From assembly GCA_015664425.1 (NCBI GenBank), contig DQQH01000258.1, positions 9,359 to 73,358 of the forward strand: DNA of 64,000 bases, read 5' to 3'. The stretch is from Planctomycetota bacterium. GTDB lineage: Bacteria > Planctomycetota > UBA8108 > UBA1146. This document shows, piece by piece, positions 14,771-58,726 of this stretch. The notes under the pieces were generated by a model. It had not been told where the DNA came from, searched no databases, and worked only from the letters and a program-made list of their open reading frames with translations. Position 1 is the stretch's first letter, and the number at the start of each line of letters is the position of its first letter. The translations under genes were made by a program, and so were the position numbers.

Positions 14771-17700
14771 ATGATTCAACAGGCTGAATTCGGGCCCGCC
14801 AGCCTGTGGGCAGGCCTCCTTATCCTCAACTTCCTGGTCACGCCGAACTCGATCGATGCTGGCGAGGAACAATACGAACAATTCGAGCGCGAAGTGCGCC
14901 CCCTCTTCGTCGAGCATTGTTACCGCTGTCACAGCCTCAGCTCCGGAAAGCAGAAGGGGGGATTGCTCCTCGATTCCCGCGATTCCCTCCGCAACGGAGG
15001 AGACAGCGGTTCTGCCATCGTCGAAGGAGACCCCGCCGCCAGTCTGCTGATCAAGGCGGTCAAGCAGTTGGACCCGGACCTGTCGATGCCTCCTGAAGCC
15101 AAACTTGCCCCATCTGAAATCGTCGCGCTGGAACGCTGGATTCTCTCCGGTGCTCCTGATCCGCGGGACGAGTCAGCGGCAGTGGTGGTGAAGAAGGAGA
15201 TCGACTGGCAAAAGGCTCGCGAGCACTGGGCTTTCCAGAAGATGGCAGACCCCCAGCCGCCGTCCCTCGCCGCCGACGAATGGTCCCGTGACGCTATCGA
15301 TCAGTTCGTTCTCGCACGGCTGAGAGAAAAGGGACTTGCTCCTGCTCCGGGTGCCAATCGGCGGACCTTGATCCGCAGGGCGACCTTTGATCTGGCGGGG
15401 CTGCCTCCAACTCCCGAGGAGATCGATCATTTCCTCGCAGATGACCAGCCTGGAGCGTTCGAGCGCATCGTCGACCGCCTGCTCGCTTCTCCCCGCTACG
15501 GCGAGCGCTGGGCGCGCCTCTGGCTCGATGTAGTCCGCTACGCAGATTCCAACGGCCTCGACGAGAACCTCGCTTATGGCAACGCCTGGAGGTACCGGGA
15601 CTACGTCATCAACGCCTTCTCCAGCGATATTCCCTTCGACCGATTGGTGCTGGAGCAACTCGCAGGAGACCTTCTGCCGGTTCCCGATGACATCGAACGC
15701 TGGAAGGGTCAGCTGATTGCGACCGGGTTTCTCGCCATGGGCCCGAAAATGCTCGCAGAACAGGACAAGGAAAAGTTAGCCATCGACATCGTCGATGAGC
15801 AACTCGACGTGACGGCGACAGCATTCCTCGGCATGACTGTCGGATGCGCTCGTTGCCATGATCACAAATATGATCCGATTCCGACCCGTGACTACTACGC
15901 TCTCGCCGGTATCTTTCGCTCTACCAGCACGATGGAGAACTTCAACCACGTCTCGCGCTGGCGGGAACTCTCCCTGGCGACGGCGGATGAGGTCGAGGTG
16001 CGCAAGAAGTGGCAAGTCGAGATCGATGTCGCCCGCAAGAGAGCCAAGGAAATCGAAGCGGACCTGGCGGCAGGACAGCTGGGGCGCTGGCGCAAGCATG
16101 CCGCTCAGGACCTGCTCGCTGCCTCGAAGGGACGCAAGAGCGCGGTTTACTTCGAGGCGGAGAGTGCAGAGAAGACAAACCTTCACATCGATTCGAGCCA
16201 CTGGGGTTCACCGGAAGTCACCATTCTTCACACCACCAAGGGGGGTGAGCAGTTTGCCCGCTGGTCGGTGGAGATCCCCCACTCGCGGCGCTGGCGCCTC
16301 GATATTCGCTATGCATCCAAGGAGAGTCGCCCGATGCGCCTGTTCATCGATGGCGAGCAGATTGGTGATCCGGTTCTGGGGTCGAAGACAGGAGATTTCT
16401 TTCCCAAGGGTCAGCGCTGGGAGCAGGTCGCGACACTCGACCTCAGCAGCGGTATCCACCAGCTGGAATTGAAGGGAACAGGGGCTTCGATACCCCATCT
16501 CGATCGCCTCCGGTTCGTCCCCGCCGGCGAGAAGGACGCCACGACCTGGCTCCCTTCTGACACCGGCTCCAGCCCGCCGGCGGTTGTGGCGGGCTGGATC
16601 GATTTCCTCGATCGATCCTCACGCCAGAAGGACCCGCTCTTTGGCACCTGGTTGCGCTTCCTGCAGCTGGAAGAGGGTGGATTCGTCGATGGGGCTCGGG
16701 AAATCTGTGACGATGTCTCCGCCGAGCTGGCGGCTGGCAGCGATGGGGTCTCTCCCCTTCTTCGGCTGGTCGTCGATGGCCTGCCTCCCGAGAGCCTGCG
16801 AGAGGCCGCGGGGCGCTTTCAGGGGGTCCTCTCTGCCCTCGACCTGGCCTCGGAGAAGCGGCCAGTTGGCAAGGATGGAAAGAAGGCAGCAACCCTTCAG
16901 GACCCCGAACTGGAACGACTGAACGGCCAATTAATCGCGCCAGGGGGTCCCTTCGGGGAACCTCTCGCCCTCGGAGAGAAGGCGATCCCGGCTGAGATGA
17001 GGCAACCGCTCGAAGAGGTGCGTGGGGAGATCACTCTTCTGGAAGAATCGGAGCCCGATCCCATCTCGACGGCGCTCGGGGTTGCCGACGGTAAGGTTGG
17101 CGACCTGCCGGTGCACATTCGTGGGAACCACTTGAACCTGGCGAAGGAAGTGACGCCGCGGGGTGTGCTCGAGATTATCTCCCACTGCGTCCCCACACCG
17201 GTCTTCGGAGGGGAGGAGAGCGGTCGACTGGAACTTGCTAGATGGATAGTTCACGAGGAGAACCCCCTGACCGCCAGAGTCATCGTCAACCGGATCTGGC
17301 AGGGCCATTTCGGCACCGGAATCGTCGAGACTCCATCGAACTTCGGATTCCGTGGTGGGACCCCCAGCCACCCGCTCCTTCTCGATCGCCTCGCTCGCGA
17401 TTTCATCTCCGATGGTTGGTCCCTCAAGAGACTGCACAGGAGGATCTTGCTCTCTGCCACGTGGCAGCAGGAGACTCGGGTGAACGAGCGCGCCAGAGAA
17501 ATCGACCCCGGGAACCGTCTCCTCTGGAGCCAGAATCGTCGTCGACTCGAGGCGGAACTGGTTCGTGACGCGCTGCTCGCCATCACTGGTGACCTCGATC
17601 TGGCGATGGGCGGCACTCTCCTGCCAACAGCCAATCGTGGCTACGTCACAAACGATCAGTCGGGAAACCAGGCCAGGTACGACGCCCCCCGAAGGGCGAT

Positions 17701-51092: not shown

Positions 51093-52718
51093 ATGATGAA
51101 ACTCGATGGACTCCTCCAACAAAGGGCCCTGGGAGAAGTCAACCCGACCGAGAGCATTTCTCTGCTCAGATGCCTCGACCGCCTCGGCACGGAGCCTGTC
51201 GATGGGTGGTCCTTGCTCCTCCCGGGAGGGGTTCATTCCCTGTTGCGTGGATTCGTTCGCCTGACCCATCTGCTCTCGAGCCTCCACGCAGGTGGGGTAC
51301 CGGTGGTCGCACTTCTCCCGCGAGCGGTCAGGGTTCGTTCGGGAGGTGAACTCGATCTTGACGCCGAACAGCTGGAGAGGGTGATTCCGAGGGACCTCGA
51401 TCAGGCGGCACCCTCCCTCGCGCCGGAGGTCCTTCTCGATCCTCGGGGGGGACATCTCGGAGAACCCCAGGCGGTCTATGCCGTCGCTGCGTTGCTCCAC
51501 CGTTGTCTCGCAGGAACTCCACCCTGGGGGGGACGGAATGCGGCGGAAGTCGCCGATCGAATTCTCACCGGGTCTCCACCCAGCGATTCCTTTTCCGCAG
51601 GCAATCTCCCCCCGGGCCTGGGCCCATTGCTCAGGGATGCGTTGCACCTCGACCCTGCTGCCCGACCGGCAACCCTGCGCGGCTTTGCATCGATGCTCGA
51701 ATCGGTGACGATGGGAGGTCGACCACGGGCGGAGGTCGCCCGTCGCCTGACGAACCAGCGCCAGCCCCACGCTCCCTGGGGTCCGATCCTGCTCGTGGCG
51801 GCGATCCTCATCTTCGCTCTGGCAGCCTTTCGCCGCTCATCTGTCGAGGATGAGATCCACCGGGTTGCCGACCGGCTGTGGTCGGTGATGGCTGTCCGGC
51901 CCCTGCCGATGCTGGGAGAAGATCCTCCGACCCATGCCCTGGCCGGAGTGGTTCTGCGCTCCGAAGAACACCATATCGGGGCTCTCGGCGATGATCCCCG
52001 CCTGCTCCTCTCTCTCGCCTGGGCGCAGATCAGGGCTGGGCACTACGAGAGCGCCGTCAGGAGCGCCCGACGTGTTCTCCTCTACGGCCCACGGGCTGCC
52101 GGAGCCTGGGTGACCATCGGAATCGCTCGCCTGGAGATGGGGGATGAGGGTGGGTTGATGGAGTTGAGGCGAGGTCTGGGCATGACCGCAGAGGGCGAGG
52201 AGCAGCGCTGGTTGCAGGTCGCGGGGCACTTCTACCTTCTCGAGTTCGATGCTGCTGCAGCGGGCTTCGAGCGCTGGACCCGCGACCACCCGAGGGACTT
52301 TTCCGGCTGGCTCCACCTTGCACTCTCGACCTATCGAGCGGGGAGGGTGGAGAGCGCCAGCAAGGCTCTGACCCAAGCGCAGCGCCTGCGTCCCCATGAC
52401 CCCTGGGTTGAGTGGTTGAGGGCGGAGATCCTCCTGGCCACCGGCGATGCGCCAGGGGCCATCCTGGTGGTCGATCGCAGCAAGACAGCCTGGGTCCGGC
52501 AACCCGCGCTTCTCCTGCGAGGTGGGGACCTCCTTCGCCGTCTCGGGGAGGAGGAGGGGGGAGAGGACTGGATTCAGCGTGCTATCGAGGAGTACGGAGA
52601 TCCCGAAGCAAGCCACTGGTTGGAGGAAAAAGCCTCGAAACCGCCGTTTTCTGCGCCCTCTCCCCCTCTCGAAGAAGTTCCTGAACATCCGGCGAATAGA
52701 AGCGTCTCGGATCCGTAG
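51093..52718 (+). CDS. Membrane protein with a degenerate (C-lobe-only) protein-kinase-like domain, one TM helix and C-terminal TPR repeats
   Basis: Kinase C-lobe remnants LHAGGV (in place of HRD), DLD (in place of DFG), SLAPEVLL and GTPPW. TM helix ILLVAAILIFALAAF followed by TPR-like repeats. An alternative ATG start lies at 50946; the ORF opens at 50748 inside ftsH. Confidence 0.5.
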   Translation: MMKLDGLLQQRALGEVNPTESISLLRCLDRLGTEPVDGWSLLLPGGVHSLLRGFVRLTHLLSSLHAGGVPVVALLPRAVRVRSGGELDLDAEQLERVIPRDLDQAAPSLAPEVLLDPRGGHLGEPQAVYAVAALLHRCLAGTPPWGGRNAAEVADRILTGSPPSDSFSAGNLPPGLGPLLRDALHLDPAARPATLRGFASMLESVTMGGRPRAEVARRLTNQRQPHAPWGPILLVAAILIFALAAFRRSSVEDEIHRVADRLWSVMAVRPLPMLGEDPPTHALAGVVLRSEEHHIGALGDDPRLLLSLAWAQIRAGHYESAVRSARRVLLYGPRAAGAWVTIGIARLEMGDEGGLMELRRGLGMTAEGEEQRWLQVAGHFYLLEFDAAAAGFERWTRDHPRDFSGWLHLALSTYRAGRVESASKALTQAQRLRPHDPWVEWLRAEILLATGDAPGAILVVDRSKTAWVRQPALLLRGGDLLRRLGEEEGGEDWIQRAIEEYGDPEASHWLEEKASKPPFSAPSPPLEEVPEHPANRSVSDP

Positions 52719-52788
52719 GTTGAGTTGAGGGACGGGGACGACCGCGCGGCGTCCTGGACTGTCCCTCCTCGACAGAAAGGAAACCGAG

Positions 52789-53412
52789 ATGAAATTCCTG
52801 AGAACCCTGTTCCTTCTCGTTTCTGGTGGCCTGCTGGTCACCGCCCCGGGCACCGTCGAAGGCGCTCCTGGGAACTCGGCGGGGCGAGACAAAAAGGCCG
52901 CTGTGGAAAAGGTGTCCCTGTTGCGGAGCGTCAGGGGGGTGACTCCTCTGCGCACGACCGCTGTGACCCGGAACAAGCGGGCGGTGACCCCCCGGCGCGT
53001 GGTGACGAAGACGCGCTCCAAGAGGACCGTTGTTCCGCTCTCGACGAGGCATTTCCGAGGCAGTATCGATCGTGTTGGCACGGTTCGCTGCAGGCGTAAC
53101 AATCACGTACATGAGTTCCTGCAGGGTGTCAGATTCTTCAATCGTGGCCTCCAGTGCTTCCGAAGGCTCTCCTGCGGGCGGGTGGAGTTTTATCTGCCCG
53201 GCCACTACGAGATGGTTTCGCGGGAAATCATCGAGCCTGGTCGCTGGAAGTACCTGAATACCCGGGTTGCTTTGCCGGTATTCGGCTGTTTCCCGGGCCT
53301 TCTGCGGACACAGCGAAATAGGGTCTGGATCGCGCCGAGAATCCGTGTGGTGACCGAACGCTGCTGGGTTCCGGGAGCCTGGGTCGAAACCCACTCCCTC
53401 CATGTTTCCTGA
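52789..53412 (+). CDS. Hypothetical secreted basic protein
   Basis: RBS AAAGGAAA. Signal peptide MKFLRTLFLLVSGGLLVTAPG. Arg/Lys- and Cys-rich. Followed by a terminator. Confidence 0.5.
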   Translation: MKFLRTLFLLVSGGLLVTAPGTVEGAPGNSAGRDKKAAVEKVSLLRSVRGVTPLRTTAVTRNKRAVTPRRVVTKTRSKRTVVPLSTRHFRGSIDRVGTVRCRRNNHVHEFLQGVRFFNRGLQCFRRLSCGRVEFYLPGHYEMVSREIIEPGRWKYLNTRVALPVFGCFPGLLRTQRNRVWIAPRIRVVTERCWVPGAWVETHSLHVS

Positions 53413-53418
53413 GAAGCT

Positions 53419-53455
53419 GGGGCCGTGTCTCCTGTGCGCGCGGCCCCAGCCCTTT
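53419..53455 (+). terminator. Rho-independent terminator after the secreted-protein gene
   Basis: GGGGCCG...CGGCCCC stem followed by AGCCCUUUUG. Confidence 0.5.
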
Positions 53456-53825
53456 TGCAGAAGCCCTTGATCCAGATCATGGGATCTCATAGGCTGCCGA
53501 CGCAACGCGGGGCGCCAGGCCGAAGTACGCCGCCTGTCTGGGGTCTCGAAAGGGGAATGGGTCTCGGGTTCTCCGCACCTTGTTGTTCCACCTCGCCTCT
53601 CGTGGATCCGAAATCACCGAAAATCTGAATTCAGGCAGCGCCTCAGTTTTGCGTGTTGCCTCAAGTGGTGCATCCTGGCCAGGGGGGAATGGGGATGGCA
53701 GGAGACCCGATCTGGACCGCTCCCACCCCGTCCACAATTGAAATCAAGGAGCCAATGGCCTGTCCGTCCCTACGCTTTCCATGGGCAGGTTCCTCCATTT
53801 CCTCGTTTATTTCAGACCCAAACTC

Positions 53826-53860
53826 CTCCTCACCGAGTAGGGACGGTGAGGAGATTTTCG
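53826..53860 (+). terminator. Second intrinsic terminator inside the intergenic leader, with a competing upstream antiterminator-like pairing
   Basis: CTCCTCACCG-agtaggga-CGGTGAGGAG followed by AUUUUCG. Upstream, 53764-53773 (ccgtccctac) is complementary to 53837-53846 (gtagggacgg), which overlaps the terminator loop and right arm. Confidence 0.45.
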
Positions 53861-53985
53861 TAGGCAATAGGGGCCGTTCGGCAGTCAGCTGGGGAGACCG
53901 TCCAGGCGCCCTCGGCGGCGTTACAACGCTCCCTCGCCTCAGGACAGCGCCTCTTCCGTAACCTCTCCCCTTCCCGCAACTTTTC

Positions 53986-54014
53986 TTTACACCCCCAATT
54001 GGCCGCGCTAGTAT
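53986..54014 (+). promoter_or_regulatory. Sigma70-like promoter candidate for the large regulator gene (TTTACA-17-TAGTAT)
   Basis: ctTTTACAcccccaattggccgcgcTAGTATtacc, about 50 nt upstream of RBS GAGGAGG and the start at 54065. Confidence 0.4.
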
Positions 54015-54064
54015 TACCGTCACGAATCAATACGGTTTATTGGAAGTGAGGAGGTTTCGTGGGG

Positions 54065-57000
54065 ATGACCCGTGAGGAACCGATCGACATGACACCGCAG
54101 GATGCTGAGGATCGGGGCCTCTCACCCGACCGGAACGAGATCCTCGATGAACTCGAGGATCTGATCCGCTGCGCTCTCCTCGCCGAGAGAGGCCAGGGAA
54201 GCGGCGTTGCCCTTGTCCTGGTTCGTGGTGCCAGTGGCCAGGGGAAAAGCCGCCTCGTCGAGGACCTCCTCGAACGCCTCGGAGATGAACGTCCTCTCTT
54301 CCAGGAGGTGGAGTGTCACGAGCGCCAGGGGATTCCCTTCCTGCCGGTGCTCCGTTTGATCAAGAACCTCATCGTATCCAGTCTCGCCCCGCGGGAGTTG
54401 TGGAGAAAATACGCTCACGTTCTGACCCGGGTATTCCCTGAACTGGTGGAGCAACTCGGAGGAGCCATGCCCCCCGATCCTCTGCCCGGGGAGGATGGTC
54501 GGATCCAGTTCCATCAGGCTCTCACCAGTATCCTCCTCGAGTTGGCTGCGGAGAGACCGCTTCTACTGGCGATCCACGACATCCATCGCTGTGATCGGGG
54601 GACGATCGAGTTCATCACATTTCTCGCTCGCAACGTGTTCCTCTCGACCGGCGGCCAACGCTCCGAGGTCGATGCGTCCGCTGGTTCAGAGGAGGGTTCC
54701 CGGGAGTGGAAGCAAATTCACACCCGTGAAGGTCGCGATGGGAAATCGGTCTCGGAGTTCCTCGAATCGGATGAGGGCTCCACCTCCGAGGGGTCTCCGG
54801 GTGCCAGGATCCAGATCGTCGTCAATTACACCTCAAAGGACAGCGCTGCTCGCCTCGCCGGGGAAACGGACGAGGTCCTCGCCTCCCTCGGGCGCCTGGC
54901 AAAGGAGCCCTTCTCGCGGCATTTTGATCTGCCTCCCCTGATGCCTGGCGATCTGGCACAGATGGTCGAGACGGAGGTCGAAGCCCGCTGCGAGCCGGGA
55001 CAGATCGAGAGGGTGTACGAGGCCACCGGAGGCAACCCGCTGCGCGCCCTCGACCTCTGTCGTCTGGTGTCGGAGAGTGGCGGGAACTGGCGGCTTCTCG
55101 ACGACATCTTGCCGGCGATACTCCCGAAAGGAGCGAGTTCTGCTCAGGAGCAGCTGGGGCGTGGCGTCTTCATGAGGCGTCTTGCCTCCTTGCCTGCCCT
55201 ACAGGTGATGGTGCTTCGTTACCTGGCGCTTCTCCGTCGCCCCGCCGATGCCGTCTTCATCGGTGAGGCCTGTCAAAGTGACCCCCAGATCCTCGATGAA
55301 GCCTTGCTGGAACTGACCGATCGAGGGTTCATCCGCTCGCGTCAGGTTCGCAACCTGTCTCGCTTTCACATCGGACATGAGGACCATCTGCGCTGGATTC
55401 GCAGAGGGATCGAGCCCTCCGAAGCCCGACGCTTACAGGGAGATCTGGGACGGATTCTGGCGGAAGATCCACGCGCGAGTGAGCCGGTCAGATCGTTCGA
55501 GATCTACGAGCAGTTGCGGGCTGCAGGTCAACTCGAGGAGTGTAGGGGCCATGGGTTTTCGGCGTTCCGCTTCTTCTCCAGCGCTTACGCCGAGCACCTC
55601 GCAATCCGGGTTGGCCGTGAACTGATCGACTCCCTCGGGGCCGACGGTGATCCGGAGATGCGTCACGACGTGCTGATGGAACTCATCGAGCTGGAGATGG
55701 GGACCGGCCAGCAGGAACTTGCCAAGGCCCACGCCAAGTCCCTCATCGAGGATCCAGAACTGCCGGCTGGCCCGCGTCTCGAGGGGCTGCTCCTCCTCGC
55801 CGAGATTTACTGCCAGCTGGGTGAACCCCTCAAGGGGATCAAGGCCCTCAACCGAGTGCCACGGGAGACGGTGGCGACGGTGGGGGGGCTCTCCGAGGCG
55901 CGCATCACAACAAAGCGCGCACGTCTCCGCCTCGAGCGCCGGGATTTCAAGCGTGCGATCAGCCTCTGCCTGCGGGGCCTCAAGGAACTCGAAGGCACCG
56001 CTGAAGAGCCAGTTCATCTCTCATTGCGTGCCGATCTTCTCGAGTTCCTTTCCGAGGCGCACCTTCGTCGAGGAGAGACCGTCTCGGCCCTGAACCACTA
56101 CCAGTCCCTGCTCGAACTGGTCGAGGGGCTCGGAGATGATGTCCGCCTCTCCTCGGTGCTGAGGACCCTGAGCCGGGTCTACTACGATCGAGGAAATCAT
56201 TTCCGCTCCGCTCGATACCTCTTCCGTGCACTCGAGGTGATCGAGCGCACACGCGATTTCCGCGCTCTGGCCTCCACCTACGAACTCCTCGGCAAGGTCT
56301 ACCGGAATTCAGGCGATTTCCCTCGCAGCCTGGAACACTTCCGACTCAGCTTGCGCCTCCGGGAAAAGATTGGTGATGCGAAACTTCTGTCACCGACGCT
56401 CAATTCCATCGGCAGTCTGCATTCCCACAACGGTGATTACGCTCGTGCCATCCGCTATTTCAAGCGCAGCGTGACCAACAGCGAACGGTTCGGCAGCACC
56501 GATGGAATCGTCCGCTCCTTCCTCCATCTTGGCTGGGTCTTTCACGAGTTGGGCGAACGCAAGCAACTGGAGAGTCTTTGCCGACAGGTGCTGATTCTCT
56601 CCCAGGAGTTCGATCTCCTCGATCTGGAAGCAGAAGGCCACCGGCTCGCAGGAAGCCTCGCCTTCCTCAGGGGGGACTTGAAGAACTCCGAGAAGGAATT
56701 CCGGCGCTCCCTGGAAATCGCCCAGAAGAGAGGAATGACCAAACTCGCAGCTGCCAGCCACCTCGACCTGGCTGCCCTCGAGCAGAAGCGCGAGCGATAC
56801 GAAGCTGCCCTCAAACTGGTCAGCCGGGGAATACTCCAGGCTGAAGAGATCCAGTCGATCCCGTTCCAGGTCAGGGGATTGCTTCTCAAGGGAGAGATTT
56901 CCCGCCATCTCCGCGGTGGCAGCCCAGAACGGACCCGGGAGTGCTACGAGAAGGCGGTCACCCTGGTCTCCGGGGAGACGCTGATGCCGTTGCAGTGGTC

Positions 57001-58429
57001 CCTCTTCTATGCCATGGCTCGCCTCCACCAGACGACGATGGAGGTTGCCGAAGCGCGGCGCTCTTATGACCGTGCGGATCAGATCATCGAACGCATCTCT
57101 TCTCGTCTTCCCGAGGATATGCGGGTCGTCTTCAGAGACGATCGCCGCAGGAAGAACTTCTTCACCGACCTCCAGAGGTTCCGCAAGGAGTCGAGCGAAC
57201 TGGTCACGGTGGAGACCATTTCTCAGGAAGGAAAGGAGGTGACCGGAGAGCGGCCACTCTCTGACTCCGCCGCTGGGCCGGATGGCGATGGCCTCCTCGT
57301 TCGGTTCTTGCCGGTGATCGACCGCCTGGCGATCGCTGAGGATCTGGCGACCTTCTTCCACAGTCTTCTCGAAGAAGCGCGTCGGCTGGTTCCCTCTCCT
57401 CGGGGTTTCATCCTCGAGAGGATCGGTTCGCGCTGGAAGGTGTTTTCCGAGATCGACATGGGTCAGAAGGAGTCGTGGGCGGTCGATGACAGCTTGCCCG
57501 GGGCAATCTCTCTCCTCACCATCGACCGGGATCAGGTGCTTCGTTCCGGTGGCGAGGAGTGGATGAAACTGGTCGAGGACTCCCAGGAAGGGTCCAGTTA
57601 CAAGGGCCGCTCGATGATGGCGATCCCGGTTAAGTTGCCCGACAGGTTTTCAGGGGTTCTTGTTCTGGAGCGTCCCACCGCTGGCAACCCCTTCCAGGAA
57701 GAGGACGGAGATCACCTTCTACAGCTGCTCCGGGTGCTCGGAGGGCAGTTTCGTGCCCTCGTAGCCGGTGACAGTCTCGCTCGCTTCGAGCGGACCTCCA
57801 TCCTCACTCCGAGTGGCTTCGAGGCGAACCTCGGTTACCTCCTCGAGAAGCAGAAGCGCGACAAGGTCCCCCTGGGAGCGATCGAGATGGTGATCCCGGG
57901 GTTGGATCATTTGATACGCCAGCGCACCGGAGAAGAAATCGTCGACAGGTTCAGCGATCTGGCCGGACCTGGTGTCGTTCATTGCCTCCGTCCAGCGGGA
58001 GACCGATACGTCTTCCTTTATCTGGGGCGAAGCCTCGAAGACCTCCAGCAGAAATCCCGGGATCTGGGCCACAGGATCTCCGAACTTCGGGAAGGTGTGG
58101 GTCTGGCCGATCGTTGCGAGATCGACATTTTTGTACACCACATGCCCCTGGACGACAGCGGTCTCGATGGGCTCCGCCGGGCCGGTGCGGGGTATTTCTG
58201 TTCGGGCGAGGTCCCACAGATCGAGAGCGAAGTCGCGACCCTCACCGGCGGGGGTATCTCATTGAAAGAAGCGAAAAGGGCCCTGGAGAAGCGTTACATC
58301 GTCTCCGCCCTGCACAAGAGCGAAGGTAACGTCACCCATGCTGCCGAGGCGTTGGGGATGCACCGCCCGCAGCTTTCCAACCTGTTGAAACGCCATGGCA
58401 TTCGCAGGGAAGACTTCGAGCGCTCCTGA
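54065..58429 (+). CDS. Very large cytoplasmic signal-transduction regulator: STAND/AAA_16 NTPase, TPR array, GAF, degenerate GGDEF-like domain and C-terminal Fis-type HTH
   Basis: Walker A GASGQGKS, Walker B LLLAIHDIH and a GGNP sensor motif. A long TPR region. GAF-like ...SMMAIPVKL...GVLVLER. A GGDEF-like fold with GDRYV in place of GG(D/E)EF. Terminal HTH_8 ...ALEKRYIVSALHKSEGNVTHAAEALGMHRPQLSNLLKRHGI. No sigma54 GAFTGA motif. Confidence 0.75.
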   Translation: MTREEPIDMTPQDAEDRGLSPDRNEILDELEDLIRCALLAERGQGSGVALVLVRGASGQGKSRLVEDLLERLGDERPLFQEVECHERQGIPFLPVLRLIKNLIVSSLAPRELWRKYAHVLTRVFPELVEQLGGAMPPDPLPGEDGRIQFHQALTSILLELAAERPLLLAIHDIHRCDRGTIEFITFLARNVFLSTGGQRSEVDASAGSEEGSREWKQIHTREGRDGKSVSEFLESDEGSTSEGSPGARIQIVVNYTSKDSAARLAGETDEVLASLGRLAKEPFSRHFDLPPLMPGDLAQMVETEVEARCEPGQIERVYEATGGNPLRALDLCRLVSESGGNWRLLDDILPAILPKGASSAQEQLGRGVFMRRLASLPALQVMVLRYLALLRRPADAVFIGEACQSDPQILDEALLELTDRGFIRSRQVRNLSRFHIGHEDHLRWIRRGIEPSEARRLQGDLGRILAEDPRASEPVRSFEIYEQLRAAGQLEECRGHGFSAFRFFSSAYAEHLAIRVGRELIDSLGADGDPEMRHDVLMELIELEMGTGQQELAKAHAKSLIEDPELPAGPRLEGLLLLAEIYCQLGEPLKGIKALNRVPRETVATVGGLSEARITTKRARLRLERRDFKRAISLCLRGLKELEGTAEEPVHLSLRADLLEFLSEAHLRRGETVSALNHYQSLLELVEGLGDDVRLSSVLRTLSRVYYDRGNHFRSARYLFRALEVIERTRDFRALASTYELLGKVYRNSGDFPRSLEHFRLSLRLREKIGDAKLLSPTLNSIGSLHSHNGDYARAIRYFKRSVTNSERFGSTDGIVRSFLHLGWVFHELGERKQLESLCRQVLILSQEFDLLDLEAEGHRLAGSLAFLRGDLKNSEKEFRRSLEIAQKRGMTKLAAASHLDLAALEQKRERYEAALKLVSRGILQAEEIQSIPFQVRGLLLKGEISRHLRGGSPERTRECYEKAVTLVSGETLMPLQWSLFYAMARLHQTTMEVAEARRSYDRADQIIERISSRLPEDMRVVFRDDRRRKNFFTDLQRFRKESSELVTVETISQEGKEVTGERPLSDSAAGPDGDGLLVRFLPVIDRLAIAEDLATFFHSLLEEARRLVPSPRGFILERIGSRWKVFSEIDMGQKESWAVDDSLPGAISLLTIDRDQVLRSGGEEWMKLVEDSQEGSSYKGRSMMAIPVKLPDRFSGVLVLERPTAGNPFQEEDGDHLLQLLRVLGGQFRALVAGDSLARFERTSILTPSGFEANLGYLLEKQKRDKVPLGAIEMVIPGLDHLIRQRTGEEIVDRFSDLAGPGVVHCLRPAGDRYVFLYLGRSLEDLQQKSRDLGHRISELREGVGLADRCEIDIFVHHMPLDDSGLDGLRRAGAGYFCSGEVPQIESEVATLTGGGISLKEAKRALEKRYIVSALHKSEGNVTHAAEALGMHRPQLSNLLKRHGIRREDFERS

Positions 58430-58528: not shown

Positions 58529-58726
58529 TCAGTTGCAGTTGAAATCGTGTGCGCGGACGGTCTTGCGACCGTTGGCGCCGGCACGGCTTGCAGCCTGCTG
58601 GATGTACCAGTGGATGACTTCGTTGAGACCGTCAAGGGCGTCACCACCCACGTTGACCCCGTGACCCTTGAGGGCAGCCTTGGCCTTGCTGCCGACCAGG
58701 AGCATCTCCTTCGTCTGAGTGTTCAT
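58529..58726 (-). CDS. Small bacterial histone-fold protein (DUF1931-like)
   Basis: MNTQTKEMLLVGSKAKAALKGHGVNVGGDALDGLNEVIHWYIQQAASRAGANGRKTVRAHDF fits helix1-loop-long helix2-loop with an RKT motif. The internal ATG was chosen. Confidence 0.45.
   Translation of the reverse strand: MNTQTKEMLLVGSKAKAALKGHGVNVGGDALDGLNEVIHWYIQQAASRAGANGRKTVRAHDFNCN

Follow-up and report, generated by a model that had tools for sequence, protein, structure and literature searches.

A two-hairpin RNA motif with loop-loop pairing in marine Planctomycetota and Patescibacteria

Several described RNA systems of bacteria come close to the element reported here. RsaE/RoxS of Bacillota are terminator-ended, trans-acting small RNAs (sRNAs) whose C/U-rich unpaired seeds target Shine-Dalgarno regions, while the guanidine-II (mini-ykkC) riboswitch joins two short ACGR loops by a 2-bp pairing and sequesters the ribosome-binding site. 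The kissing complexes of ColE1 RNA I/RNA II and CopA/CopT are intermolecular and form between transcripts of opposite plasmid strands, and the raiA motif RNA is an orphan conserved motif among bacterial noncoding RNAs (ncRNAs). To our knowledge, almost no ncRNAs are known beyond the housekeeping ones in the genomes of Planctomycetota and in the reduced genomes of Patescibacteria. Here, we analysed a stretch of 64,000 nucleotides from a Planctomycetota bacterium (GCA_015664425.1, contig DQQH01000258.1; hereafter the window), in which a gap of 652 bp separates a plus-strand gene for a 207-residue hypothetical protein (52789-53412) from the plus-strand gene of a giant STAND-type regulator. A preliminary description made from the letters alone had presented this gap as a regulator leader of about 640 bp with a mutually exclusive antiterminator. 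Our sequence comparisons show that positions 53753-53862 encode a conserved, structured plus-strand RNA element, made of two hairpins whose loops pair with each other, that is present in two phyla and absent from Rfam 15. The reading that we favour, with about as much confidence as reserve, is that of a stand-alone terminated small RNA belonging to a previously uncatalogued family. The motif and its parts are arranged as follows:

53753-53862, plus strand: the conserved RNA motif of about 110 nt (H1, linker, H2 and tail), delimited by the covariance model and by the drop in identity at its edges.
53757-53791, plus strand: hairpin H1, with arms 53757-53767 and 53781-53791 and a 13-nt loop, CCCUACGCUUUCC, based on covariation.
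53767-53773, plus strand: UCCCUAC, the near-invariant 5' strand of the kissing pairing, formed by H1 loop nucleotides plus the weak closing U.
53792-53825, plus strand: the unpaired CU-rich linker CCUCCAUUUCCUCGUUUAUUUCAGACCCAAACUC, near-identical in Planctomycetota clade A and in Patescibacteria.
53826-53860, plus strand: hairpin H2 followed by AUUUUCG, with arms 53826-53835 and 53844-53853 and the loop AGUAGGGA, based on the terminator scan and on covariation.
53837-53843, plus strand: GUAGGGA, the near-invariant 3' strand of the kissing pairing, which fills the H2 loop.

The limits of the motif emerged from a pairwise comparison of the intergenic gap with that of a close relative, L011, whose regulator is 78% identical. 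Between the two genomes the motif is 96-100% identical, and essentially 100% over ~53737-53861, despite flanking proteins that share merely 41-78% identity; right after the T-tract the identity drops to 24-56% and recovers only at the regulator promoter. Identity profiles from 13 genome pairs (the window with L011 and 12 others) delimited a conserved unit of about 105-110 nt with two sharp edges, and nhmmer found the same block of about 110 nt in more distant loci. A covariance model built from five sequences gave exactly one strong plus-strand match (62-127 bits) in 29 of the 32 syntenic Planctomycetota loci with upstream DNA, and found no motif in 18 chance loci that served as negative controls. 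The three loci that gave no match (L033, L039 and L042, of the BrkB type) are uninformative because their contigs end before the expected position. In the window the motif scored 126.7 bits with model R1 and 118.2 bits with model R2 run with filters off, and it is present as a single copy, being the sole real match of R2 in the 64 kb. A second, weak R2 match under the same settings (16491-16605, plus strand; 13.5 bits, E = 0.067) is most likely noise. The open reading frames (ORFs) that overlap the region are not conserved, a 41-residue ORF at 53738-53863 changing frame in L011, and Pfam returned nothing for the four longest intergenic ORFs; a hidden protein gene in the gap was rejected on these grounds, and the earlier remark that no protein gene ends at the second terminator proved correct. 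No tRNA or tmRNA was found.

The final alignment, on which the structure was examined, comprises 35 sequences (34 distinct); in it we counted 10 pairs for H1, 10 for H2 and 7 for the loop-loop helix. Standard pairs filled 97.8% of the pair cells of the distinct sequences, 15 of the 27 pairs showed changes on both sides, and none of 500 shuffles matched the observed pairing and covariation; as a control, sliding the 3' partners lowered pairing to 42-48%. The helices contain 110 G-U against 2 A-C combinations and are therefore those of an RNA read from the plus strand and not of a DNA palindrome, an asymmetry on which both a DNA-level element and a minus-strand RNA were rejected. Changes on both sides were seen in 6 of the 10 counted pairs of H1, with 97.6% of its cells paired in the 34 sequences, and in 8 of the 10 pairs of H2. 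The seven pairs of the loop-loop helix are pairable in 99.6% of cells in the same set, its covariation resting on two independent compensatory events only, C-G to G-C in L080 (UGCCUAC with GUAGGCA) and C-G to U-A in L043/L020 (CCCUAU with AUAGGG), with the remaining loop positions invariant. The two-hairpin fold is also the minimum free energy structure (-43.7 kcal/mol). A scan of column pairs disclosed no additional covarying helix, and an enclosing helix GAAAU/AUUUC suggested by the single-sequence fold was discarded, its register being unconserved in relatives. The alignment thus shows a kissing contact between UCCCUAC in the H1 loop and GUAGGGA in the H2 loop that is compatible with both hairpins standing.

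This contact bears directly on the antiterminator. The preliminary description had noted a 10-nt complement of the terminator loop plus the first 3 nt of its right arm, and had concluded that the two structures cannot form together. The complementarity is exact: 53764-53773 (CCGTCCCTAC) is the reverse complement of 53837-53846 (GTAGGGACGG), a match that only 2 out of 5000 dinucleotide-shuffled versions of the preceding 100 nt attained. The conclusion failed, as 7 of the 10 nt pair loop to loop and can do so while both hairpins stand. Comparison with relatives gave a divided answer, since these 7 bp alone are conserved and carry the compensatory changes, whereas the invasion of the terminator arm shows no covariation. 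The 3-nt extension (CCG with CGG) draws on nucleotides that H1 and H2 already constrain. Among 28 sequences, pairing fails in 7, 1 and 4 at its three positions, and covariation was seen at none of them; where H1 position 14 has become U or C, the opposite nucleotide is still C. Three of the four Patescibacteria members lack the extension. Moreover, the best fold containing the 10-bp helix reaches -29.5 kcal/mol versus -43.7 kcal/mol for the two-hairpin fold, about 14 kcal/mol worse. Because the conserved pairing is confined to the loops, the extension does not covary and the alternative fold is costly, we interpret the complementarity as a kissing contact and not as a mutually exclusive switch, and we rejected a terminator-excluding helix maintained in evolution. 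With the promoter of the regulator lying downstream of the motif in addition, the picture of a 640-bp leader with a mutually exclusive antiterminator is not supported. Of the broader suggestion of a riboswitch or attenuator, or else a terminated sRNA, it is the separate structured RNA ending at the hairpin that finds support, from the sharp edges of conservation, the covariation, the promoter and terminator that it possesses in Patescibacteria and the unrelated nature of its neighbour genes.

The 3' end of such an RNA would be set by H2, whose 10-bp stem CTCCTCACCG/CGGTGAGGAG includes 7 G-C pairs and encloses an 8-nt loop (53826-53853, followed by ATTTTCG; -17.9 kcal/mol). This was the only terminator-like site that the scan reported in 52500-55000, confirming the second terminator described earlier, with a U-run of just 4 (AUUUUCG). 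As in an intrinsic terminator, the stem is G+C-rich and closed by a short loop, and it is kept by covariation; conservation with L011 stops right after the T-tract. Among the 35 members the U-run is at least 4 in 15, at least 3 in 26 and at most 2 in the other 9. We infer that H2 acts as a terminator here.

No Rfam 15 family reached its gathering threshold anywhere in the window, and at E <= 10 (region 53300-54200, L071 and L014) the matches were differing, implausible and mostly on the wrong strand. The Infernal comparison with Rfam, which the first reading had proposed, thus returned no riboswitch or sRNA family. A stretch likened there to the thiamine pyrophosphate (TPP) aptamer is present as letters (GATCTGGA) but is not kept in L011, and we regard the likeness as chance: the TPP model (RF00059) matched nothing in 53300-54200 at E <= 10 and nowhere in the window reached its gathering threshold; a THI element would be expected to match its covariance model over both helical arms and over its conserved cores, CUGAGA and ACCUGAUCUGGAUAAUGCCAGCG. 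The literature that we searched held no description of the RNA at 53753-53862. Judged by sequence and structure comparison, the element is a new family among the small structured RNAs of bacteria, a known kind.

Members outside Planctomycetota came from a metagenome pattern scan filtered with the model, which added a divergent, AT-rich sequence (L058/L071) placed in Patescibacteria because of its TyrRS. The corresponding site of three more Patescibacteria species also has the motif, in the order ValRS, TyrRS, motif, SAM methyltransferase and phosphoglucomutase. In all four species the motif is flanked by TyrRS or a small ORF on one side and by a UbiE-like SAM methyltransferase on the other, and the giant regulator is absent there. 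The stem of H2 is built there from entirely different, compensating sequences, and the loops and linker (CCUCCUUUUUCCUCGUUUAUUUCAGACCCAAAC) are almost identical to those of the window. All four have a consensus promoter, TTGACA-17-TAnnAT, ending 19-34 nt before the model start, and U-rich tails, with a U-run of 7 in one and of 3-4 in the other three. The TyrRS loci of more distant, Buchananbacteria-like and Parcubacteria-like genomes contain no motif within 4 kb and are uninformative because synteny is lost there. A mobile-element or phage origin was rejected, as IMG/VR gave no match confirmed by the covariance model and the phage and plasmid collections none at all. The phylogenetic range is a lower bound, the collections having been scanned with a protein anchor or an exact pattern only.

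Taken as a stand-alone sRNA, the element would be its own transcription unit of about 115-140 nt, longer in this genome if transcription starts near 53500, and would end at H2 and its U-tract, an intrinsic terminator of partial efficiency located shortly before the regulator promoter. The kissing contact would compact the RNA and leave the linker (CCUCC...UUCCUCGUUUAUUUCAGACCCAAAC) exposed as a partner-binding surface. The linker (53792-53825) resembles an anti-Shine-Dalgarno sequence, and our leading guess for the partner would be mRNAs, bound at their Shine-Dalgarno regions, the other option being a conserved protein. Independence from the neighbouring genes is indicated by the sharp boundaries in 13 genome pairs and by three different downstream contexts: the STAND/TPR/GAF/HTH regulator, BrkB/YihY, and the UbiE-like methyltransferase followed by phosphoglucomutase, which have no consistent functional class in common. 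A promoter of its own is clear in the four Patescibacteria species, and the window offers a weak candidate (53467-53495) together with the terminator-like 3' end.

Several observations weigh against this stand-alone sRNA. Neither pattern searches nor alignments of the Planctomycetota loci revealed a convincing sigma-70 promoter immediately before the motif, and 9 of the 35 members have a weak U-tract or none. The motif shares its strand with the next gene in every context seen. The U-tract of three Patescibacteria loci stops 1-8 nt short of the methyltransferase start codon; that gene probably depends on read-through there, which resembles the situation of a cis-acting leader. Finally, the unpaired nucleotides are near-identical across two phyla, a pattern more typical of riboswitches, ribozymes and protein-binding RNAs than of base-pairing sRNAs.

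The alternative that survives best, possible in our view though on the unlikely side, is a cis-acting leader, either a riboswitch or an attenuator controlled by a protein or ligand, in which H1, the linker and the loop contact would form the sensor and H2 a terminator gating read-through into the regulator or BrkB gene in Planctomycetota and into the methyltransferase operon in Patescibacteria. The features of the locus on which its evaluation depends are these:

53986-54014, plus strand: the regulator promoter, TTTACA-17-TAGTAT, found by the scan, downstream of the RNA motif.
54017-54035, plus strand: a conserved inverted repeat, CCGTCACGAATCAATACGG, right after the -10 box, CCGTCAGGATTCATTACGG-like in relatives.
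54059-58429, plus strand: the regulator gene, with AAA_16, TPR, GAF and Fis-type HTH_8 domains by Pfam matches; the gene callers' start is the ATG at 54065.

A leader would account well for the constant orientation of the motif, 1-200 nt upstream of a gene or its promoter, and for the Patescibacteria arrangement, in which a strong promoter, the motif, the U-tract and a start codon follow one another and, in three of the four species, leave no space for a second promoter. Stems that covary around loops and a linker that stay near-invariant across phyla are likewise the usual pattern of an aptamer, and the 10-nt helix is possible in this window. Against it stands the regulator promoter. The promoter that the earlier reading had placed downstream of the element was recovered by the scan, and of the 29 aligned loci 25, with the window among them, keep it between motif and regulator as TTTAC[GA]-N17-TANNNT. 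It begins 32-56 nt past the motif in 23 of these loci and, in the window and L011, 103-124 nt past it; the motif is therefore not an obligate 5' untranslated region of the regulator. A gene for a BrkB/YihY-family membrane protein (PF03631) intervenes between motif and regulator in L031, L037, L038 and L044, and in three more BrkB loci (L033, L039 and L042) the contigs end within a few hundred bases of the expected motif position; in 3 of these 7 loci the regulator promoter was found after BrkB and hence stays with the regulator. A leader is further disfavoured by its putative target genes, as a STAND-type regulator, BrkB/YihY and a UbiE-like methyltransferase share no evident function, by the lack of covariation in the 3 nt that would disrupt the terminator, by the alternative fold being 14 kcal/mol less stable, by the missing U-tract in 9 of 35 members and by the absence of any match to an Rfam riboswitch.

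Less probable still, and to be regarded as quite doubtful, is an unusual or non-regulatory RNA: a self-cleaving ribozyme, a protein-sequestering RNA, or a multimer in which the H1 loop of one molecule would pair with the H2 loop of another. The patchy distribution across phyla with vertical inheritance within each lineage would suit such an RNA, as would the near-invariant unpaired nucleotides, a 7-bp loop complementarity that is equally possible in trans and the strong consensus promoters of Patescibacteria, which are as for abundant RNAs. Opposed to it are the failure of any Rfam ribozyme or protein-binding family to match, an architecture of two plain hairpins without internal loops or a multi-stem junction, and the GGA of the H2 loop, which is engaged in the covarying loop pairing and not free for a CsrA-type protein. 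A proposal that cuts across these readings, which we consider unlikely but deserving mention, is that we are seeing for the first time a new RNA class common to Patescibacteria (the Candidate Phyla Radiation, CPR) and marine Planctomycetota, be it a switch that senses a ligand or a protein, a ribozyme, or an RNA assembling through the 7-bp contact within a molecule or between molecules; if so, the near-invariant linker would recognise a partner universal enough for conservation across phyla. That the motif has no RNA function, being a chance pair of hairpins or a DNA element such as a transcription-factor site or insulator, is highly improbable, since, although an upstream activating site could well lie where the motif is found in 23 loci, 32-56 nt ahead of the regulator -35 box, compensatory changes preserve RNA pairing, G-U pairs prevail on the plus strand (110 vs 2), the motif occurs without the regulator in Patescibacteria and chance yielded the 10-nt complement in 2 of 5000 shuffles.

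For the stand-alone sRNA that we prefer, the position of the 5' end matters next, and the following features of the upstream gap are relevant to it:

53419-53460, plus strand: an intrinsic-terminator-like hairpin and CCCTTTTG tail of the upstream 207-residue hypothetical gene, based on folding and on comparison with L011.
53467-53495, plus strand: a candidate sigma-70-like promoter, TTGATC-N17-TAGGCT, read from the sequence and weak.
53674-53752, plus strand: a 5' flank conserved with L011 only (pairwise identity 68-88%, compared with 24-40% directly 3' of the motif), whose G-run GGGGGGAATGGGG may pair with CCGCTCCCACCCC.

The hairpin at 53419-53452 plus CCCTTTTG folds at -31.2 kcal/mol (z = -3.7) and is retained in L011 with a compensatory U-A to C-G change, in keeping with the terminator that had been placed after the secreted-protein gene. 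Just beyond it, the candidate promoter went unreported by the consensus scan and was not found in other clades; L011 has the matching boxes TTGATC-N17-TAGTCT. This promoter could, though the evidence is weak, give rise to a longer form of the RNA of about 360 nt starting near 53502. The candidates for the 5' end in this genome would thus be a position near 53737-53745, where identity with L011 turns perfect, and one near 53502. The pairing of the G-run with CCGCTCCCACCCC comes from a two-sequence consensus fold of the window and L011; the flank 53674-53752 shows no family-wide conservation and may be a clade-specific 5' domain or the promoter region of the RNA.

The DNA upstream of the motif is strand-biased in most Planctomycetota loci, where the 320 nt preceding it hold about 60 GGGG(G/A)A motifs on the plus strand versus 3 on the minus strand; in the window these sites lie at 53553-53565 and 53683-53700. 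Clade B has a conserved upstream block, CTGCTGCAGGCAG...GGGATGGGGGAATCC. The G-rich block may represent a clade-specific 5' domain of a longer RNA, and it is absent from several members and from Patescibacteria. A CsrB-like sponge, suggested by the upstream GGA and GGGGGAA repeats, was considered and rejected, the repeats being clade-specific and missing in those same genomes and the GGA of the H2 loop being base-paired. In clade E, tandem copies of TTTTGCCACAG (3-4 repeats) adjoin the 5' edge of the motif (L030 ~2574-2623; L036 ~2706-2755), the last copy, TTGCCACC, being kept throughout the clade; these copies might serve as a reiterated binding site for a protein or as an element of a promoter.

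Around the regulator promoter, conservation far exceeds the two hexamers (window 53975-54040; L012-L046), with a CACCGTTC-like box directly upstream of the -35 and repeated ACCGT/ACGGT half-sites. By their sequence, the inverted repeat and half-sites suggest an operator, possibly for autoregulation through HTH_8, or a hairpin at the 5' end of the regulator mRNA. The stretch CUCCUCCUCACCG (53821-53833), which runs from the bases preceding H2 into its 5' arm, contains a 9-nt perfect complement, CCUCCUCAC, of the ribosome-binding region of the regulator, GUGAGGAGG (54046-54054). This complement is not a feature of the family, because the H2 arms differ in Patescibacteria, and it may reflect merely a Shine-Dalgarno-like composition.

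The regulator has 1454 or 1456 residues, by the start at 54065 or 54059, and its orthologues (39-78% identity) all come from metagenome-assembled genomes of marine Planctomycetota; identical or near-identical copies of the locus are present in deep-sea and hydrothermal-plume metagenomes, the Lau Basin plume contigs Abe_10000349, KiloMoana_1000802 and Lau_10088776 included. Relatives across this range keep the gene order FtsH, TPR protein, hypothetical protein of about 200 residues, long gap, regulator, small minus-strand ORF and FadB. The remaining features of this neighbourhood are:

52789-53412, plus strand: the hypothetical gene, 207 residues, with no Pfam domain.
~58529-58726, minus strand: the small ORF, conserved in position (L011 8938-9132; L012 9460-9648; L014 9471-9659).

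The hypothetical protein evolves much faster than its neighbours: it shares 41% identity with its L011 counterpart, while the TPR protein and the regulator share 73% and 78% with theirs. The small ORF (62-66 residues), directly downstream of the regulator, is called in all syntenic relatives, has no Pfam match and is unannotated. Two records that carry the Planctomycetota-locus regulator and the RNA motif are titled otherwise, L029 (QNYK01000090.1) as 'Bacillota bacterium' and L031 (JAFMMO010000114.1) as 'Proteobacteria bacterium', L029 additionally sharing the Planctomycetota gene order; both are likely mislabelled bins or contaminating contigs.

With its compact size (about 110 nt), its strong covariation, a kissing contact of 7 bp that engages the terminator loop and a linker kept near letter for letter in two unrelated phyla, the RNA makes a clean candidate for experiments. 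Its long-term association in Planctomycetota with a giant regulator of the STAND type (AAA_16-TPR-GAF-HTH) is a hint that regulator and sRNA form a module. Annotation gains the correction of an "attenuator" call that was plausible but wrong, and a covariance model, R2, applicable to whole databases.

Compared with the described systems, the motif shares with RsaE/RoxS a length of about 100-140 nt, an own promoter (in the Patescibacteria members), a putative 3' terminator of hairpin and U-tract, and an unpaired CU-rich stretch whose CCUCC and UUCCUC are complements of ribosome-binding sites of the GGAGG type. It differs from them in showing no similarity of sequence or model, in having a near-identical linker in two phyla and in an intramolecular loop-loop pairing that uses the terminator loop. 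With terminator/antiterminator attenuators it shares a U-tract hairpin upstream of a co-oriented gene and an upstream segment complementary to part of that hairpin, but its conserved complementarity is restricted to the loops, the promoter lies downstream, the gene contexts are inconsistent and the alternative fold is strongly disfavoured. As in guanidine-II and in the L2-L3 contact of purine riboswitches, the loops of two hairpins pair, with covarying stems and conserved loop nucleotides; unlike guanidine-II, the two loops differ (13 and 8 nt), 7 Watson-Crick pairs join them, the hairpins stand on either side of a long conserved linker and Rfam gives no match. The contact recalls the 6-7 bp between hairpin loops of ColE1 RNA I/RNA II and CopA/CopT, where loops of 7-8 nt are almost fully paired, yet both loops of the motif would belong to one chromosomal transcript. 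Lastly, like the raiA motif it is defined by comparative genomics only, with strong covariation, a promoter of its own (in Patescibacteria) and a putative terminator, while differing in sequence and fold, in its much smaller size and in a range that spans Planctomycetota and Patescibacteria.

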